Positions 1 through 8,451 of a stretch of DNA of 11,071 nt are shown here, one piece after another; the stretch's first letter is position 1; each line of letters opens with the position of its first letter. Source of the DNA: a virus (Duplodnaviria; Heunggongvirae; Uroviricota; Caudoviricetes). The position numbers and the translations under genes are program-made. Location: IMG/VR virus record IMGVR_UViG_2778261676_000005; one strand, written 5' to 3'. The notes under the pieces were generated by a model. The model saw only the letters and a list, made by a program, of their open reading frames with translations. It did not search any database and had not been told where the DNA came from.

Positions 1-1053
1 TTACGGGGTAATGCCAACCGCTGCCGCCACTTTGTCGCCACTTGGCAGCGTTGCCAGAGGATTGAAACGGAGCGCCGTTTCCAGATGATCCGGTGCCAGA
101 TGAGCGTAACGCATAGTCATTTTTATATCGTGATGTCCGAGGATTTTTTGCAAAGCAAGGATATTTCCACCCGACATCATGAAATGCGCCGCAAACGTAT
201 GGCGCAGAACGTGTGTCAGTTGACCGCGAGGGAGCACGATTGACGTTTTTTCCATCACGGATAAAAATTGAAAATAGCAGTCTGTGAAGAAATTGAACCC
301 ATCAAGCGCCATGATCTCTTCATAAAGCTCTTTACTGATAGGGATGCTTCTGTTTTTCTTCCCCTTCGTTCTTACAAAGGTAATTCGGTATTTAGTCACC
401 TGTGATCGGGTAAGGTTTATTGCTTCTCGCCAGCGTGCGCCTGTGCTTAAGCATATCTTGACTACCAGTGCCAGAATTGGGTCCTGACGTTTGCAATCAG
501 CCAGCAGTTCAACAATCTGCTCATGGGTAAGCCATGCCATCTCTTTTTCTGCGATGGTGAATTTTCGCATGTTCTCCAGTGGGTTTGGATACGACCATTC
601 GCCCAGGCGGGATAGTTCGCTAAAAACACTACTTAGATAGCTTTGCTCCAGGTTAATGGTGACCGGGCTTGCTCCTTTCTTCCATTTCTCGCTGAAGTAG
701 ATCTCACCTGTCAGGCGTTTATCTCGATAGTGGGCAAACATTTTAGAGGTGAGATCGGTTGCAAGGGGATTGCCCAGAGCGTCAACCATCAACAGCAATT
801 TATCATAGACATGCTGCCCAGCGGTTAGAGATTTACCATGTAGTTTGAACCATAGCTCAACCACGTCTTTCAGTGTTCGACGATCCACTGATTCTCCCAG
901 CCAGGGCTTTGCTTCGGTTTCTTCCATCGTATGGCGCTCAAAAGCCAGAGCTTCGCCTTTGGTGGCGAATTGTTTACGCACACGACGCCCACTACGTCCG
1001 GCGGGGTAACATTCGCAAAGCCATTTTCCTGTGGTGAGTTTTCGTACTGCCAT
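1..1053 (-). CDS. int: Tyrosine recombinase / phage integrase, P2-186 family
   Basis: The 376-aa ORF resembles P2 integrase along its length, including the C-terminal catalytic region (..HVLRHTFAAHFMMSGGNILALQKILGH..MTMRYAHL). Start placed at ATG 1053 (MAVRKLTTGKW) because GGAGGG lies 7 nt upstream; the ORF-track start at 1131 is probably an upstream extension. Stop is at 1-3. Confidence 0.9.
   Translation of the reverse strand: MAVRKLTTGKWLCECYPAGRSGRRVRKQFATKGEALAFERHTMEETEAKPWLGESVDRRTLKDVVELWFKLHGKSLTAGQHVYDKLLLMVDALGNPLATDLTSKMFAHYRDKRLTGEIYFSEKWKKGASPVTINLEQSYLSSVFSELSRLGEWSYPNPLENMRKFTIAEKEMAWLTHEQIVELLADCKRQDPILALVVKICLSTGARWREAINLTRSQVTKYRITFVRTKGKKNRSIPISKELYEEIMALDGFNFFTDCYFQFLSVMEKTSIVLPRGQLTHVLRHTFAAHFMMSGGNILALQKILGHHDIKMTMRYAHLAPDHLETALRFNPLATLPSGDKVAAAVGITP
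19..40. repeat. Left copy of 22-bp direct repeat cgctgccgccaYtttgtcgcca; candidate attL core
   Basis: Matches 8217-8238 at 21 of 22 positions (c versus t at position 12). It lies in the last codons of int; the other copy abuts the ogr stop, where P2-type attP is expected. Confidence 0.6.
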
Positions 1054-1239
1054 AAAAAATGCCCTCCAATAGAGAGCATTTTTACTGTATGTATAACCAG
1101 TGTCAATGTATGAAATCCTGCGACCATACATCTCACTGAAGCCATAATGAAGTTGGCTATTTTTTGCTATGTGAGTATGTGACTTTTGCGGTTAGCCTGC
1201 GGCTCATTGTTATATTAGGCGTAGATATAAAAGCAAAAT

Positions 1240-1431
1240 TTATCGCGAGTTTTTAGTACAGATTTTTTTTGATTTACTAATAGTTCCATCATTGCAAACG
1301 AACTTTCCATCGGAGGTACAGTGAGAGACACCTCCCTTTTTCCCAGAACAAGGGTAATTTTTAGCATAGGTAGTTAGTGGGTTTAATAACAAAGAGCATG
1401 ATAAAACCACAAAAAATACCTTACCAAGCAT
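1240..1431 (-). CDS. Small secreted cysteine- and lysine-rich protein (63 aa), function unknown
   Basis: Hydrophobic N-terminus with a likely signal-peptidase site after ..TYA; mature part ~40 aa with 4 Cys. Strong SD (GGGAGGAAA) directly after the cI stop, so probably co-translated with cI. Region is visibly AT-rich. Confidence 0.55.
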
Positions 1432-1446
1432 AGTTTCCTCCCGGTA

Positions 1447-2016
1447 TTACCTAACGTACTTAATTGTTAAACTTATAATTTTCCCAATTATTTCAACATC
1501 TTCTATCTTGCACTCGAAGGCTCTGTTTCCACCTTCAACGAAGATTCTTCCACCGGGTAAACGAGTAATGTCGCGGATTGTTATTTCGCCATCAATACTT
1601 ATTACCCATTTACCGTCACGTATATCATCAAATTCTTTATCACAAATAAATTCAGAATTGTTATCTGTGATGACAAAAGGTTTTTTAAACGTAGAGGGTA
1701 GAAATCCCTTATCAAAAATATAAAAACCGTCTTCACGCAAGGCACCATCAGATAATACATATTTAGCAACTTCCATAGTATTTGTATTACCTGAAGTTTG
1801 CTTTGAACCATGTCCGGTTGTGAGCCAATTAAGCGAGGTGCCCGTTTCAAGGGCGCACTGGATTACCCATTCTGCTGGGAATGAGTCACGCATGTAGCGT
1901 GTGGCGAGTGTACTTTTAGAGATTCCTAAATGATCGCACAACGCCTGTCGAGTTTTGAATCCATAAGCTTCTACCATGCGCTCTATAGCGCCTCGTCCGC
2001 CTTTCTCCAAATTCAT
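1447..2016 (-). CDS. cI: CI-type prophage repressor (phage 186 CI family: N-terminal HTH plus C-terminal domain)
   Basis: N-terminus AIERMVEAYGFKTRQALCDHLGISKSTLATRYMRDSFP is typical of the 186 CI HTH domain; ~190 aa as in 186 CI. Divergent from the early operon. ATG 2016 preferred (GGAG 5 nt upstream) over the GTG at 2022 used by the track. Confidence 0.8.
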   Translation of the reverse strand: MNLEKGGRGAIERMVEAYGFKTRQALCDHLGISKSTLATRYMRDSFPAEWVIQCALETGTSLNWLTTGHGSKQTSGNTNTMEVAKYVLSDGALREDGFYIFDKGFLPSTFKKPFVITDNNSEFICDKEFDDIRDGKWVISIDGEITIRDITRLPGGRIFVEGGNRAFECKIEDVEIIGKIISLTIKYVR

Positions 2017-2040
2017 GGTCACTCCAAGTGAACTTTTATC

Positions 2041-2069
2041 TTGACGATTTCACTGTGCGATCGTATGTT
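2041..2069 (+). promoter_or_regulatory. Candidate sigma70 early lytic promoter (pR-like): TTGACG-N17-TATGTT
   Basis: -35 TTGACG at 2041-2046, 17-nt spacer, -10 TATGTT at 2064-2069, pointing at apl/cII. Flanked by inverted hexamers GTGAAC (2030-2035) and GTTCAC (2086-2091) and by two GATC sites. Confidence 0.4.
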
Positions 2070-2141
2070 TATGGTGTTCACAAAATACAAACGATCCGTA
2101 TTCGTCCTGATTAATCATCATTAAACGAGGAATGTTGCATC

Positions 2142-2363
2142 ATGAGACCTAACATTTCAATCACTCTTACCACGCCTCATGTGACTATTGAACGCTATAG
2201 CGAGCTGACAGGGCTGTCCATCGATACCATCAATGACATGTTGGCTGACGGACGCCTTATCCGTCACCGTCTGCGCAAAGATAAAAAACGTGAAAAAGTG
2301 ATGATCAACATAGCAGCCATGACCGTTGATGCGCTTTCAGAATGCAATCTAAACCTTAATTAG
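2142..2363 (+). CDS. apl: Apl/Cox-like small DNA-binding protein (excision control / repressor of lysogenic promoter), assigned by position
   Basis: First gene of the rightward operon opposite cI, 73 aa, basic C-terminus, GAGGAA upstream. Assignment rests on position in the 186-type switch and size, not on recognised sequence motifs. Confidence 0.5.
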
Positions 2364-2395
2364 TTCGATTCTGAAATACATCAGAGGCATTGACC

Positions 2396-2905
2396 ATGTT
2401 TGATTACCAAGTTTCCAAACATCCACATTTTGATGAAGCCTGTCGTGCATTCGCATTGCGCCACAACCTAGTGCAACTGGCAGAACGTGCAGGCATGAAT
2501 GTGCAGATTCTGCGGAACAAGCTGAACCCAGCTCAACCTCATTTATTAACCGCACCAGAAATCTGGTTGCTTACCGATCTGACTGAAGATTCAACGCTGG
2601 TAGATGGCTTTCTGGCACAGATTCACTGCCTGCCATGTGTACCGATTAATGAGGTGGCAAAAGAGAAACTGCCGCATTACGTCATGAGTGCAACTGCAGA
2701 GATAGGGCGTGTCGCGGCAGGTGCGGTTTCTGGCGATGTAAAAACCAGTGCAGGCCGTCGTGATGCGATCAGCAGCATTAACTCTGTTACACGACTGATG
2801 GCGCTGGCTGCTGTTTCATTGCAGGCCCGTTTACAGGCTAATCCTGCGATGGCGAGTGCAGTTGATACCGTGACTGGCCTCGGTGCTTCATTCGGTTTGC
2901 TGTGA
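2396..2905 (+). CDS. cII: CII-like lysogeny establishment regulator (phage 186 CII family)
   Basis: Resembles 186 CII from the second Met ([20 protein letters not shown]..), and is 169 aa from that Met, the same length as 186 CII. AGAGG lies 8 nt upstream of ATG 2396. Confidence 0.8.
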
Positions 2906-2912
2906 GGTGCTT

Positions 2913-3113
2913 ATGCTGACGAAAGAACCATCATTTGCATCGCTGCTGGTAAAACAAAGTCCGGCAATGCACTACGGTCACGGCTGGATCATGGGTGAGG
3001 ATGGTAAACGCTGGCATCCGTGCCGTTCACAAGATGAATTGCTGGCAGAACTATCTACGAAAAAACGGGGGAACAAATGGCTATTGAAGGCGCTGCGGCG
3101 ACTGTTCCATTAA
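2913..3113 (+). CDS. Small early protein, unknown function (positional equivalent of 186 fil)
   Basis: ATG 2913 preceded by GTGAGGTG; 66 aa; follows cII in the same operon. No motif recognised. Confidence 0.45.
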   Translation: MLTKEPSFASLLVKQSPAMHYGHGWIMGEDGKRWHPCRSQDELLAELSTKKRGNKWLLKALRRLFH

Positions 3114-3418
3114 GACCCGGTGAACGCCTGAATGGACTTAATCATATTGCGGAGTTAAGGGCGAAAGTTTTTGGTTTGAATATTGAGTCAGAGCTTGAGC
3201 GGTTTATTAAAGATATGCGTGATCCTCGGGATATCAATAATGAACAAAATAAACGGGCACTGGCTGCCATATTCTTTATGGCAAAAATTCCAGCTGAACG
3301 TCATAGCATCAGCATTAATGAGCTGACCACTGACGAAAAGCGGGAGTTGATTAAAGCAATGAATCATTTTCGTGCAGTGGTGAGCTTATTTCCCAGACGG
3401 CTAACCATGCCGAATTAA
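3077..3418 (+). CDS. Early protein, unknown function (113 aa)
   Basis: ATG 3077 preceded by GGGGGAA; overlaps the upstream ORF by 37 nt in another frame. No motif recognised. Confidence 0.45.
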   Translation: MAIEGAAATVPLRPGERLNGLNHIAELRAKVFGLNIESELERFIKDMRDPRDINNEQNKRALAAIFFMAKIPAERHSISINELTTDEKRELIKAMNHFRAVVSLFPRRLTMPN

Positions 3419-3485
3419 CCAACTAATGAAATTAATGGCGTAAACCCGCCGGGCATCCCTTTATCTAAATTCAGGAGAATTGCTT

Positions 3486-3719
3486 ATGCGTAATATTGAA
3501 ACCCTCACGACCAAAACCGGACCGGATGATGCAGGTCTTAATCTTTTACTGACAGAAGCTCGTCTGGAAGAACGCCGGGCAAGGGCTGAAGCAATGGCTG
3601 CTCGCCTCGATAGCCTGGCGTGTCATATCACCTCCCGCCAGCTAAACCACGTCGAAGCGGCAGAACTGCTGCGTGTGACTGCTGAAGCAATCCAGAACGA
3701 AGCGCAGGAGATCCACTGA
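3486..3719 (+). CDS. Small early protein, unknown function (77 aa)
   Basis: ATG 3486 with AGGAG 8 nt upstream (the track start at 3480 is a TTG). Its stop overlaps the next start (TGATG). Confidence 0.5.
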   Translation: MRNIETLTTKTGPDDAGLNLLLTEARLEERRARAEAMAARLDSLACHITSRQLNHVEAAELLRVTAEAIQNEAQEIH

Positions 3720-3946
3720 TGGCTGATGCAATGGATCTCGTACAGCAGCGCGTTGAAGAAGAACGCCAACGCCATATCCGTGCTGCCCGTGCCAAAACGC
3801 CGGGCGTGTCCCGCGTGCTTTGCGTTGAGTGTGAAGCGCCAATTCCGCCAGCACGCCGCCGTGCCATTCCGGGTGTGCAGCTTTGCATTACCTGTCAGGA
3901 AATCGCAGAGCTGAAAGGCAAACATTACAACGGAGGTGCTGTATGA
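3719..3946 (+). CDS. TraR/DksA-family C4 zinc-finger protein (P2 orf82-like)
   Basis: CVECEAPIPPARRRAIPGVQLCITCQ is a CxxC...CxxC finger with the basic spacer typical of phage TraR-like proteins. Stop overlaps the dam start (ATGA). Confidence 0.75.
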   Translation: MADAMDLVQQRVEEERQRHIRAARAKTPGVSRVLCVECEAPIPPARRRAIPGVQLCITCQEIAELKGKHYNGGAV

Positions 3947-4800
3947 GCACCATCCTGAAATGGGCAGGAAATAAAACCGCCATAATGTCCGAACTGAAAA
4001 AGCATCTTCCTGCTGGCCCGCGACTGGTTGAACCTTTCGCGGGTTCCTGTGCAGTGATGATGGAGACGGATTATCCCAGCTATCTTGTTGCGGATATTAA
4101 TCCTGATTTAATCAACCTCTATAAAAAGGTTGCTGCTGATTGTGAGGCGTTTATATCTCGTGCCAGAGCTTTATTTGAGGAAGCAAACAGGGAGGTGGCT
4201 TATTACAACATAAGGCAGGAGTTTAATTACTCCACTGAAATTACTGATTTCATGAAAGCGGTATATTTCCTGTATCTCAATCGTCACGGTTACCGTGGTT
4301 TATGTCGCTATAACAAGAGCGGGAATTTCAACATTCCCTACGGTAATTATAAAAATCCGTATTTCCCTGAAAAAGAAATTCGCGCATTTGCAGAAAAAGC
4401 CCAGCGAGCAACGTTTATCTGCGCCAGCTTTGATGAAACGCTGGCGATGTTGAAGGCGGGGGATGTGGTGTATTGCGATCCGCCGTATGACGGTACGTTT
4501 TCCGGCTATCACACTGATGGTTTCACTGAAGATGACCAGTATCACCTGGCATCCGTTCTTGAACATCGGTCATCAGAAGGACATCCGGTCATTGTTTCTA
4601 ACAGTGACACATCCCTGATCCGTTCGTTGTATCGCAATTTCACCCACCACTACATCAAAGCAAAACGCAGCATCGGTGTGGCAGCTGGCGAGGGTAAATC
4701 AGCAACAGAAATCATTGCTGTTTCCGGGCCGCGCTGCTGGGTGGGATTTGATTATTCGCGTGGCGTGGACAGTTCTGCCGTGTACGGAGTACGTGCATGA
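3943..4800 (+). CDS. dam: DNA adenine methyltransferase, Dam-like (N6-adenine class)
   Basis: N-terminus [11 protein letters not shown] and motif FAGSCAV, plus the catalytic DPPY motif ([11 protein letters not shown]). ATG 3943 follows GGAGG; the longer track ORF from 3883 is an upstream extension. Confidence 0.85.
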
Positions 4801-6359
4801 GTCATGCCGATATGAACAACTGCTGCGGCTTTAACGAGTCTGCCGCAGCATTCTCATGGAACAGCCCGAAAAAGGCCATTAACCCTTATCTGGACCCGGC
4901 GGAAGTTGCGCCGGTTTCTGCGCTTTCAAACCTGATCACTCTGTACGCTGCCGATAACGAGCAGGAACAACTGCGCCGCGAGGCACTGAGTGATCAGGTC
5001 TGGGAGCGTTATTTCTTTAATGAATCCCGTGATCCTGTCCAGCGCGAAATGGAGCAGGATAAGCTAATTAGCCGGGCAAAGCTGGCGCATGAGCAGCAGC
5101 GTTTTAATCCGGACATGGTCATTCTGGCGGATGTCAACGCCCAGCCTTCCCATATCAGCAAGCCGCTGATGCAACGTATTGAATACTTCAGCAGCCTGGG
5201 CAGGCCAAAGGCTTATTCCCGCTATTTACGTGAGACGATTAAGCCATGTCTGGAACGACTGGAGCATGTACGCGACAGTCAGCTATCTGCATCTTTTCGC
5301 TTTATGGCAAGCCATGAAGGGCTGGACGGCCTGCTGATCTTGCCTGAAATGAGTCAGGATCAGGTGAAACGCCTGTCCACCCTGGTAGCTGCGCATATGA
5401 GTATGTGCCTTGATGCAGCTTGTGGTGATTTGTATGCCACCGATGACGTTAAGCCAGAAGAAATCCGCAAGACATGGGAAAGGGTGGCAGCAGAAACCCT
5501 GCGACTGGATGTCATCCCACCTGCGTTTGAGCAACTCCGCCGGAAAAGAAACCGCCGTAAACCCGTGCCCTATGAACTCATTCCGGGTTCGCTGGCGCGT
5601 ATGTTGTGCGCCGACTGGTGGTATCGGAAATTATGGAAGATGCGTTGCGAATGGCGGGAAGAGCAGTTGCGCGCTGTCTGCCTGGTCAGCAAAAAAGCAT
5701 CTCCCTATGTCAGCTATGAAGCTGTGATGCATAAACGTGAGCAGCGCCGTAAGTCGCTGGAGTTTTTTCGTTCTCATGAACTGGTGAACGAAGATGGCGA
5801 CACGCTGGATATGGAAGACGTGGTAAACGCCAGCAGCAGCAACCCTGCGCATCGCCGCAATGAGATGATGGCCTGTGTTAAAGGTCTGGAGCTTATCGCG
5901 GAAATGCGCGGTGACTGCGCCGTTTTCTACACCATCACCTGTCCGTCACGTTTCCATTCCACGCTAAATAACGGCAGGCCCAACCCGACTTGGACAAATG
6001 CGACGGTAAGACAAAGCAGTGATTATCTGGTCGGCATGTTTGCTGCATTTCGTAAGGCGATGTACAAAGCCGGATTGCGCTGGTATGGCGTGCGGGTGGC
6101 TGAGCCGCATCATGACGGTACAGTTCACTGGCACCTGTTGTGTTTTATGCGCAAAAAAGATCGCCGCGCCATTACTGCTTTGTTGCGTAAGTTTGCCATT
6201 CGTGAAGACCGTGAGGAGCTGGGTAATAACACAGGACCACGCTTTAAGTCTGAGCTGATACCGGGGAAGTGCAGGCCGTGGAGCTTGTGGTGCGTGGACG
6301 TCACAAAGAAGTGGATTCCGGCGAGTGGAAGACGGGCGAAAGCAACACCACCAAAGTGA
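4797..6359 (+). pseudogene. A: Replication initiation protein gpA (rolling-circle HUH endonuclease), 3'-truncated
   Basis: Resembles P2 gpA through the HUH motif ([16 protein letters not shown]). The ORF then ends after a short tail that is the out-of-frame reading of the tail-tube-like fragment. At 520 aa it is short of the ~760 aa I recall for P2 gpA. Confidence 0.7.
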
Positions 6360-7907: not shown

Positions 7908-7997
7908 TTCTTCGCAATGGAGAACTTTTAAGTTTGCAAAATGGAATAATAAGGTATCATTATTGTGAATTTAGCAAAAATGGGGAGAACTCGAAAA

Positions 7998-8216
7998 ATG
8001 ATGATTTGCCCACTGTGTGGAAGTGCCGCCCATACTCGCAGCAGTTTTCAGGTATCTTCATTGACCAAAGAGCGTTACAACCAGTGCCAGAACATTAACT
8101 GCAGCCATACTTTTGTTACCCATGAAACTTTTGTTCGTTCGATTGCAACGCCAAAAGAGTCAAATCCGGTTCAGCCGCATCCAATGAAATCAGGACAGGT
8201 GGCGCTCTCTCTTTGA
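7998..8216 (+). CDS. ogr: Late gene transcription activator Ogr (zinc finger)
   Basis: MMICPLCGSAAHTRSS...ERYNQCQNINCSHTF...PHPMKSGQ resembles P2 Ogr (Cys4 finger); 72 aa from ATG 7998, as in P2. GGGGAGAA upstream. Confidence 0.9.
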   Translation: MMICPLCGSAAHTRSSFQVSSLTKERYNQCQNINCSHTFVTHETFVRSIATPKESNPVQPHPMKSGQVALSL

Positions 8217-8238: not shown

Positions 8239-8296
8239 TCGTTAAAAAGCAGTGCTTCTAACATCATGATTTTAAAAGGCATAAATTTCAGACAAC

Positions 8297-8339
8297 AAAA
8301 AACCCATCAACCTTGAACCGAAATGGCGGGGTTGATGGG
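8297..8339 (-). terminator. Candidate intrinsic terminator for ybjL (read on the minus strand)
   Basis: Perfect 10-bp arms CCCATCAACC (8303-8312) and GGTTGATGGG (8330-8339), with an inner CCG/CGG pair, followed on the minus strand by a U-run (plus-strand A-run 8297-8302). About 110 nt downstream of the ybjL stop, and the loop is large, so confidence is modest. Confidence 0.35.
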
Positions 8340-8451
8340 CTCCACAAAATGGGGACATCAAAGAAAAGCAGTGGCACTAATTAAGACTGATGCCCTGCGG
8401 AAAAGTTCTGCGGTTGTGCAAAAAAATTTCATTTTCAGGGCAACTTCAGTT

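Follow-up and report, generated by a model that had tools for sequence, protein, structure and literature searches.

What is encoded directly behind cII in the early operon of a decayed prophage, at the place where phage 186 carries the genes fil and dhr? The question was raised by three small open reading frames (ORFs) at positions 2913-3719 of an 11,071-nucleotide (nt) stretch of DNA, referred to below as the window, which belongs to the IMG/VR virus record IMGVR_UViG_2778261676_000005 (Caudoviricetes). An earlier note, made from the sequence alone, had taken them for real early genes of unknown function at the place of host-takeover genes, in which no motif was recognised, and had called the overlap of the first two unusual. 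The analysis identifies ORF1 as a fil homologue, ORF2 as a DUF5347 protein and ORF3 as a DUF2732 protein. In addition, profile comparisons indicate a remote relationship of ORF2, as a single-domain protein, to the replication protein B (gpB) of phage P2. The region would represent a module of a 186-type (P2-family) prophage in the order fil, gpB-like DUF5347 gene, tR1 terminator and orf79/80-like DUF2732 gene, and for this reading, together with the roles proposed below, we consider the chances to be somewhat better than even.

All three proteins belong to curated Pfam families, each with a gathering threshold of 25 bits. ORF1 matched PF10893 (Phage_186_Fil) with 85.8 bits over residues 5-58, ORF2 matched PF17282 (DUF5347) with 113 bits over residues 11-110 of 113, and ORF3 matched PF10809 (DUF2732) with 101 bits over its full length. 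Matches with phrog_816, annotated as "cell division inhibitor" (ORF1, E = 1.4e-38), phrog_602 (ORF2, E = 1.8e-55) and phrog_128 (ORF3) were also found. The NCBIfam search returned no model for any of the three proteins, and the Rfam search no family within the three-ORF region. The absence of motifs claimed in the note is thus not borne out, since homology does place the ORFs in families; what stands of the "unknown function" is that, among the three, a phenotype has been described for Fil only.

That these are real genes, as the note had supposed, is also seen from their conservation and annotation. The ratio of nonsynonymous to synonymous divergence per site (pN/pS) was computed across 20 loci. 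In the annotated frames it was 0.16 for the Fil core (pS 0.51) and 0.17 for the part of DUF5347 outside the overlap (pS 0.45), and in off-frame controls of the same two regions it was 1.6-3.5 (pS 0.05-0.11). In an intact prophage that occupies this chromosomal site, RefSeq annotation by the Prokaryotic Genome Annotation Pipeline (PGAP) contains the identical three coding sequences (CDSs), including the overlap, under the names "phage filamentation protein Fil family protein", "DUF5347 domain-containing protein" and "DUF2732 family protein". Pfam scores far over the gathering thresholds, low pN/pS in the annotated frames and identical RefSeq CDSs together speak for real genes rather than chance ORFs. 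Each ORF has the Shine-Dalgarno (SD) sequence reported in the note, namely GAGGTG at 2904-2909 for ORF1, which shares bases with the cII stop codon TGA (2903-2905), GGGGGAA at 3067-3073 for ORF2, within the fil coding sequence, and AGGAGA at 3473-3478 for ORF3. Among 5426 complete E. coli genomes, 1325 carry the 1.6-kb stretch from cII to the start of dam, which was also found in 108 phage records (Klebsiella, Yersinia, Salmonella, Escherichia, Erwinia). The three ORFs are genuine, widely conserved and already catalogued early genes and, as a genome-scan finding, mostly ordinary, as roughly one in four complete E. coli genomes has these prophage genes.

The position of ORF2 was compared with the early operons of related phages. 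The gene order is cox-orf78-B-terminator-orf80 (DUF2732) in P2, apl-cII-fil-dhr-tR1-CP79 (DUF2732) in 186, fil-RepB-DUF2732 in Yersinia phages and cox-cII-fil-DUF5347-spacer-DUF2732 in the window. ORF2 immediately precedes the terminator, behind which the DUF2732 gene follows, and this matches the placement of P2 B; the DUF5347 gene fills the slot of dhr in 186 and of gene B in P2. The note had assigned the ORFs to the place of the 186 genes fil and dhr. The slot was correctly recognised; ORF1, however, is fil itself, and ORF2 has no similarity to Dhr. Most 186-type phages, unlike 186 itself, have DUF5347 in place of dhr, and the phage records contained dhr in 10 cases, DUF5347 in 83 and B in 82. 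No phage record among the matches listed carried P2 B and DUF5347 together, which, along with the rarity of dhr, would fit a single "DnaB-capture" gene per phage.

The similarity between DUF5347 and P2 B was revealed through an intermediate family. With P2 B as the tblastn query, 50,697 phage records (a 2.3-Gb database) yielded near-identical B genes and, in addition, a gene encoding 103 amino acids (aa) just downstream of fil in Yersinia enterocolitica phages, matching B residues 44-80 with 49-51% identity (E = 2e-3 to 5e-3). These 103-aa proteins scored 25.8 and 17 bits with the Pfam DUF5347 model, at or near its threshold, and their homologues carry a precomputed match to PF26815 (Phage_RepB) together with a faint one to PF17282. 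According to the hhalign analysis, the E-values of which are pairwise and without database correction, DUF5347 aligned with the Yersinia RepB-type family over 80 columns, essentially its full length (95.4% probability, E = 1.6e-8), and the RepB-type family aligned with P2 B (97.4-97.7%, E = 1.5e-11 to 2.2e-12). A merged DUF5347 and RepB-type profile matched P2 B with a probability of 84.7% (E = 6.7e-6). All three alignments have a single register, in which R75-H76, E82-L83 and A94-M95-N96 of ORF2 correspond to R56-H57, E64-M65 and A76-I77-D78 of B, and the motif common to ORF2 and P2 B is F-x-A-x-[IL]-x(2,3)-R-H-x(4)-[FI]-x-E-[LM]-x(3)-E-[KR]-x(2)-[LV]-[IV]-x-A-[MLI]-[ND].

P2 B also seems to contain this domain twice. 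In P2 B (PF26815; locus L007, 1959-2459), residues ~39-84 match the DUF5347/RepB-type domain strongly, and residues 106-158 align with the RepB-type profile with a probability of 58.6% (E = 9.5e-5), which points to a second, degenerate repeat. A natural DUF5347 protein of 213 aa (P0125) is a clear tandem duplication. Given the match of its second half and the natural tandem protein, P2 B is plausibly a duplicated form of the DUF5347/RepB-type domain.

Several points weigh against a gpB-like role of ORF2 within the proposed module. The direct comparison of the DUF5347 profile with P2 B gave a weak result (hhalign 9-16%, E about 2e-3), the Pfam DUF5347 model had no match in P2 B at E ≤ 1, and the link between the two proteins passes through one intermediate family. 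The precomputed Phage_RepB domain was found in 0 of the 120 closest ORF2 homologues, which carried PF17282 only. ORF2 has 113 aa and one domain, compared with 166 aa and probably two repeats in P2 B. Because its close homologues are labelled DUF5347 only and its architecture differs, ORF2 is not a certified member of Phage_RepB; what it has in common with B is the slot, the motif and the profile link via the Yersinia family. Furthermore, gene A is truncated in the prophage remnant, which leaves no way to exercise a replication role here, and the phenotype described for Fil, on which the role of ORF1 in the module depends, comes solely from a note in the GenBank record of 186.

A relationship to B has been indicated before as a label. 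GenBank records of Yersinia pestis 186-type phages tag the DUF5347 gene as "replication protein; P2 B homolog" (vB_YpM_MHG51; locus L006, 2501-2839); the paper presumed to stand behind these records does not discuss the label and describes automated BLASTP-based annotation. The evidence tying DUF5347 to a gpB-type domain, as obtained from the profile alignments, is modestly new. By it, a common DUF can now be linked, at a confidence that can be tested, to gpB of P2, the protein of replication and helicase loading.

The same data bear on a second view of ORF2, in which it would share its function with 186 Dhr alone (dhr "inhibits host DNA replication" according to the GenBank record of 186) and inhibit host replication through a target other than DnaB, the P2 B similarity being too remote to speak of function. 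ORF2 does lie exactly at the place of dhr, overlapping the end of fil and upstream of tR1, and the direct profile match of the ORF2 family with B is weak. Against this, a sequence relationship between ORF2 and Dhr (66 aa) was undetectable at any sensitivity tried, and the best-conserved motif of ORF2 is one common to the RepB family, which makes this view unlikely. Dhr was rejected as a sequence relative of ORF2 (blastp E = 0.84, hhalign probability < 1%).

The AlphaFold2 (AF2) model of ORF2, which is confident with a predicted local distance difference test score (pLDDT) of 86.6, comprises a disordered segment (residues 1-13) followed by four helices in a single domain. Among solved structures and predicted viral ones, the fold search with this model found no neighbour that was informative, and the ORF2 sequence profile found nothing below E = 0.7 in the Protein Data Bank (PDB). 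A P2 B structure was absent from the results of both the PDB sequence-profile and the fold searches made with ORF2, and to our knowledge none has been solved. A small helical protein of this kind might also be a helix-turn-helix-like DNA-binding regulator of the early operon rather than a helicase-binding factor. This deserves little credence: the fold scores lie in the range of noise for a four-helix bundle and are equalled by those of helical subdomains of ABC-ATPases, the chain of homology ends in P2 B, for which no role in DNA-binding regulation is known, and the operon already has Cox/Apl and CII.

DUF5347 is a small family, with 57 clusters (50% identity) in a set of 1.84 billion representative proteins, and is confined nearly entirely to Enterobacterales; the literature search returned no publication that deals with what DUF5347 or DUF2732 does. 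Uncharacterised early genes of phages often serve anti-defence, and the post-fil slot is a mosaic, holding B, dhr, DUF5347 or a short RepB and, in some loci, extra inserted ORFs. These two circumstances could be taken to mean that the slot carries counter-defence or accessory cassettes and that ORF2 and/or ORF3 act in anti-defence, not in replication. We find this hardly credible, since DUF5347 and DUF2732 are conserved and syntenic instead of hypervariable and ORF2 has homology to a replication protein. There was also no PADLOC match, although the PADLOC library consists of defence genes, not of anti-defence genes.

The helicase-binding role of ORF2 can be described as follows. P2 B is counted among helicase loaders, beside lambda P, with Odegrip et al. 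(2000) cited for the interaction between B and DnaB. As P2 B is listed there through this interaction, a B-like domain in the slot would be expected to capture DnaB. Identity, family membership, conservation, dual-frame constraint, synteny and the remote P2 B homology are what the comparisons established, and from these we infer every biochemical activity ascribed to the three ORFs. B is said to bind DnaB and to behave like lambda P. ORF2 is probably a single-domain gpB-like replication accessory protein that binds DnaB. The three ORFs would be transcribed from the early promoter upon lifting of CI repression; ORF2 would then bind the host DnaB helicase and help to load it where protein A has nicked the origin, and/or withdraw it from the host fork, and would in this way fill a "replication takeover" slot, like B in P2 and dhr in 186.

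Capture of DnaB could also depress host replication, as a by-product or as its purpose, which is the phenotype behind the name of dhr. Lambda P both loads and inactivates the helicase. It may serve as a functional analogy only, in that a small DnaB-capturing phage protein can presumably both serve the phage and depress host replication; profile and fold searches found no sequence or fold similarity between lambda P and ORF2. DnaB capture with both effects would reconcile the "B-like" and the "dhr-like" roles. The result is a DnaB-binding hypothesis for a gene of most 186-type phages (Escherichia, Salmonella, Klebsiella, Yersinia), and the link suggests why 186, with dhr in this slot, may depend on host replication functions differently from P2. 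Phage 186 reportedly requires host DnaC and P2 does not; if this is right, phages with DUF5347 would be predicted to be P2-like in this respect.

A more far-reaching proposal may be added tentatively, as possible but rather doubtful. DUF5347 would be the minimal single-domain gpB DnaB-binding module and P2 B its tandem duplication; the post-fil slot would be a "DnaB-capture" slot, the occupant of which sets the dependence on DnaC and the mode of host replication shutdown, and the fixed 37-nt overlap would couple synthesis of the division inhibitor to that of the replication factor.

The overlap between fil and the DUF5347 gene was confirmed at 3077-3113, where it codes for the Fil tail W-L-L-K-A-L-R-R-L-F-H and, in the other frame, for the DUF5347 N-terminus M-A-I-E-G-A-A-A-T-V-P-L. 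It was compared among 43 loci carrying both genes (46 species-representative genomes minus those without fil, plus the phage loci and the window). The overlap measures exactly 37 nt in 35 of them, from Escherichia, Citrobacter, Klebsiella, Raoultella, Enterobacter, Pantoea, Erwinia, Tatumella and Yersinia-phage loci, at identities as low as 69% for Fil and 52% for DUF5347. It is a fixed, conserved trait of the fil-DUF5347 pair and no oddity of this locus. The eight exceptions are seven loci with at least one extra ORF between the genes and PSP3, in which the DUF5347 gene is disrupted. In the more distant Brenneria and Symbiopectobacterium prophages, the upstream ORFs belong to the Fil family (41.5 and 24.6 bits) and the two genes abut without overlap.

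Within the overlap, pN/pS was 0.43 in the Fil frame (pS 0.25) and 0.35 in the DUF5347 frame (pS 0.29), a pattern of selection that would be expected if both frames are read. A contrary explanation is that only one frame is translated over 3077-3113, either because Fil functionally ends at about residue 50 or because ORF2 starts downstream, and that annotation of a mosaic joint produced the overlap. It can draw on the Fil tail, which is wholly different among 186-type, DUF5347-type and insertion-type loci and stops 4 codons early in a Citrobacter pasteurii prophage (L034), on the predicted disorder of ORF2 residues 1-13 and on one phage annotation that begins DUF5347 at an internal ATG. Nevertheless, in ORF2 of the window the first in-frame start codon after M1 is that of M47, and its initiation must therefore be inside fil; homologues share the MAI/MAN start together with its SD; and the overlap shows about half the synonymous divergence seen outside it, with pN/pS < 0.45 in both frames. 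Translation of a single frame seems quite improbable on these grounds. With both frames read, ORF2 would begin 37 nt within fil, and the overlap would code only for the disordered N-terminus of ORF2 and the Fil tail.

The fil/DUF5347 junction acts as a small insertion hotspot. Insertions were found in L010-L012, L018, L019, L036 and L042, where Fil ends in yet another C-terminal tail; in L010, a 74-aa ORF without a Pfam match lies between the two genes (2754-2978). The disrupted gene of PSP3 (L005, 2500-2850) is unannotated and reflects a frameshift or a sequencing error.

As for ORF1, its conserved core (residues 1-50) is 82% identical to that of 186 Fil (CP77). Both genes begin right after cII (stop 2905, ATG 2913 in the window) and overlap the next gene, by 14 nt in 186. 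The tails differ: residues 51-66 of ORF1, coded in the overlap with a different downstream gene, are unrelated to residues 51-75 of 186 Fil. Since the sequence of the tail varies with the downstream gene, the 3' end of fil is a mosaic joint. The ORF1 tail is amphipathic and basic (helical hydrophobic moment 0.80, net charge +4), and the unrelated tail of 186 Fil and those of distant Fil proteins are likewise basic and hydrophobic; one may speculate that the tail is a membrane-binding or partner-binding element. The note in the GenBank record of 186 on fil reads "overexpression blocks cell division", and by orthology ORF1 would block division of the host cell; residues 1-50 would be the conserved part and the C-terminal tail a variable basic, hydrophobic appendage dictated by the downstream gene. 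P2 Orf78 was considered as a Fil relative and rejected, as it has no PF10893 match.

The spacer between ORF2 and ORF3 (3419-3485) has 67 nt in the window and in most loci. It contains a hairpin, GGCG-TAAACC-CGCC, followed by GGGCATCCCTTTATCT, and 19 of 20 loci share the spacer core TGGCGTAAACCCGCCGGGC unchanged, L043 having one substitution; synonymous sites in the flanking genes differ by about 45-50% over the same loci. The element coincides with the annotated tR1 of 186 (24384-24412). In P2 the stem is kept through compensatory changes (CGCAC/GTGCG), and Yersinia phages also keep a hairpin there. Judging from this comparison, the element is a conserved homologue of the 186 tR1 terminator; a simple terminator scan had missed it because the stem has only 4 bp, and it was revealed by comparison between loci. 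With the spacer identified as tR1, ORF1 and ORF2 fall into a promoter-proximal unit, and ORF3 and later genes lie behind the terminator, which would gate transcription into ORF3. Between genera, the spacer with this element has changed less than the genes on either side. The locus documents this feature and, in addition, a dual-coding overlap of deep conservation.

ORF3 is 46% identical to 186 CP79, which is marked as "not essential" in the 186 GenBank record, and P2 Orf80 belongs to the same Pfam family. ORF3 resembles both in its position after tR1 and in its coupling to the gene for a TraR/DksA zinc-finger protein, with which its stop codon shares 1 nt (TGATG, 3717-3721); nothing distinctive was found in it. 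The AF2 model, built from a shallow alignment, consists of one long helix (residues 13-76; pLDDT 75, predicted template-modelling score 0.37), which suggests that ORF3 forms a coiled-coil oligomer. At a low-confidence guess, this long-helix, probably coiled-coil protein might be an accessory factor working with the translationally coupled TraR/DksA-like protein or in replication. A PADLOC JetC match to ORF3 (E = 0.023) was rejected as a coiled-coil artefact; no other defence-system match was obtained.

The window is a segment of the E. coli chromosome with a decayed 186/P2-family prophage. Its rightward early operon consists of cox/apl, cII, the three ORFs, the TraR/DksA zinc-finger gene, dam and the truncated replication gene A, which is followed by tail-gene fragments and ogr and then by the host genes rybB, ybjL and grxA. 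The coordinates are given in Table 1.

Table 1. Positions of the three ORFs and of other features in the window
Feature	Coordinates	Strand	Supporting data and remarks
Integrase gene	1-1131	-	
CI repressor gene	1447-2022	-	Faces the rightward early operon, as does the integrase gene
cII, lysogeny activator of the CII/CP76 family	2396..2905	+	PF06892, 144 bits; 69% identity with 186 CII; maps to PGAP CDS 9007-9516 of L002; directly upstream of ORF1
ORF1, fil homologue, 66 aa	ATG 2913 to TAA 3113	+	PF10893
ORF2, DUF5347 protein, 113 aa	ATG 3077 to TAA 3418	+	PF17282
Dual-coding overlap fil/DUF5347, 37 nt	3077..3113	+	Two different frames
Putative tR1-type terminator homologue	3437-3466	+	Comparison with 186 tR1
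ORF3, DUF2732 protein, 77 aa	ATG 3486 to TGA 3719	+	PF10809
TraR/DksA-type C4 zinc-finger gene	3719..3946	+	PF01258, TIGR02419; 68% identity with 186 CP80
ogr	7965-8216		Right end of the prophage remnant
RybB small RNA gene	8294-8372	-	Rfam RF00110, 105 bits; just past ogr

The survival of the three genes through decay of the prophage, proposed in the note, agrees with the comparison with the intact prophage at the same chromosomal site of strain 95-3322. Positions 1-4718 of the window are colinear with it at 99.2% identity, so the early region including the three ORFs is intact, and the three proteins are 100% identical to their counterparts. Past 4718, 196 nt (4719-4913) stand in for ~1 kb that holds a hypothetical gene between dam and A in the 95-3322 prophage, and gene A breaks off after 6259, running into tail-gene fragments (6259-6359). 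The whole window was contiguous in no complete E. coli genome of the collection, the top coverage being 89%. The attachment site is probably at or beside rybB. Between the genes for the integrase and CI, a 63-aa Cys-rich ORF with a signal-peptide-like N-terminus was found on the minus strand (1240-1431); it is "hypothetical" in RefSeq, had no match in Pfam or PADLOC and is a possible lysogenic-conversion moron.

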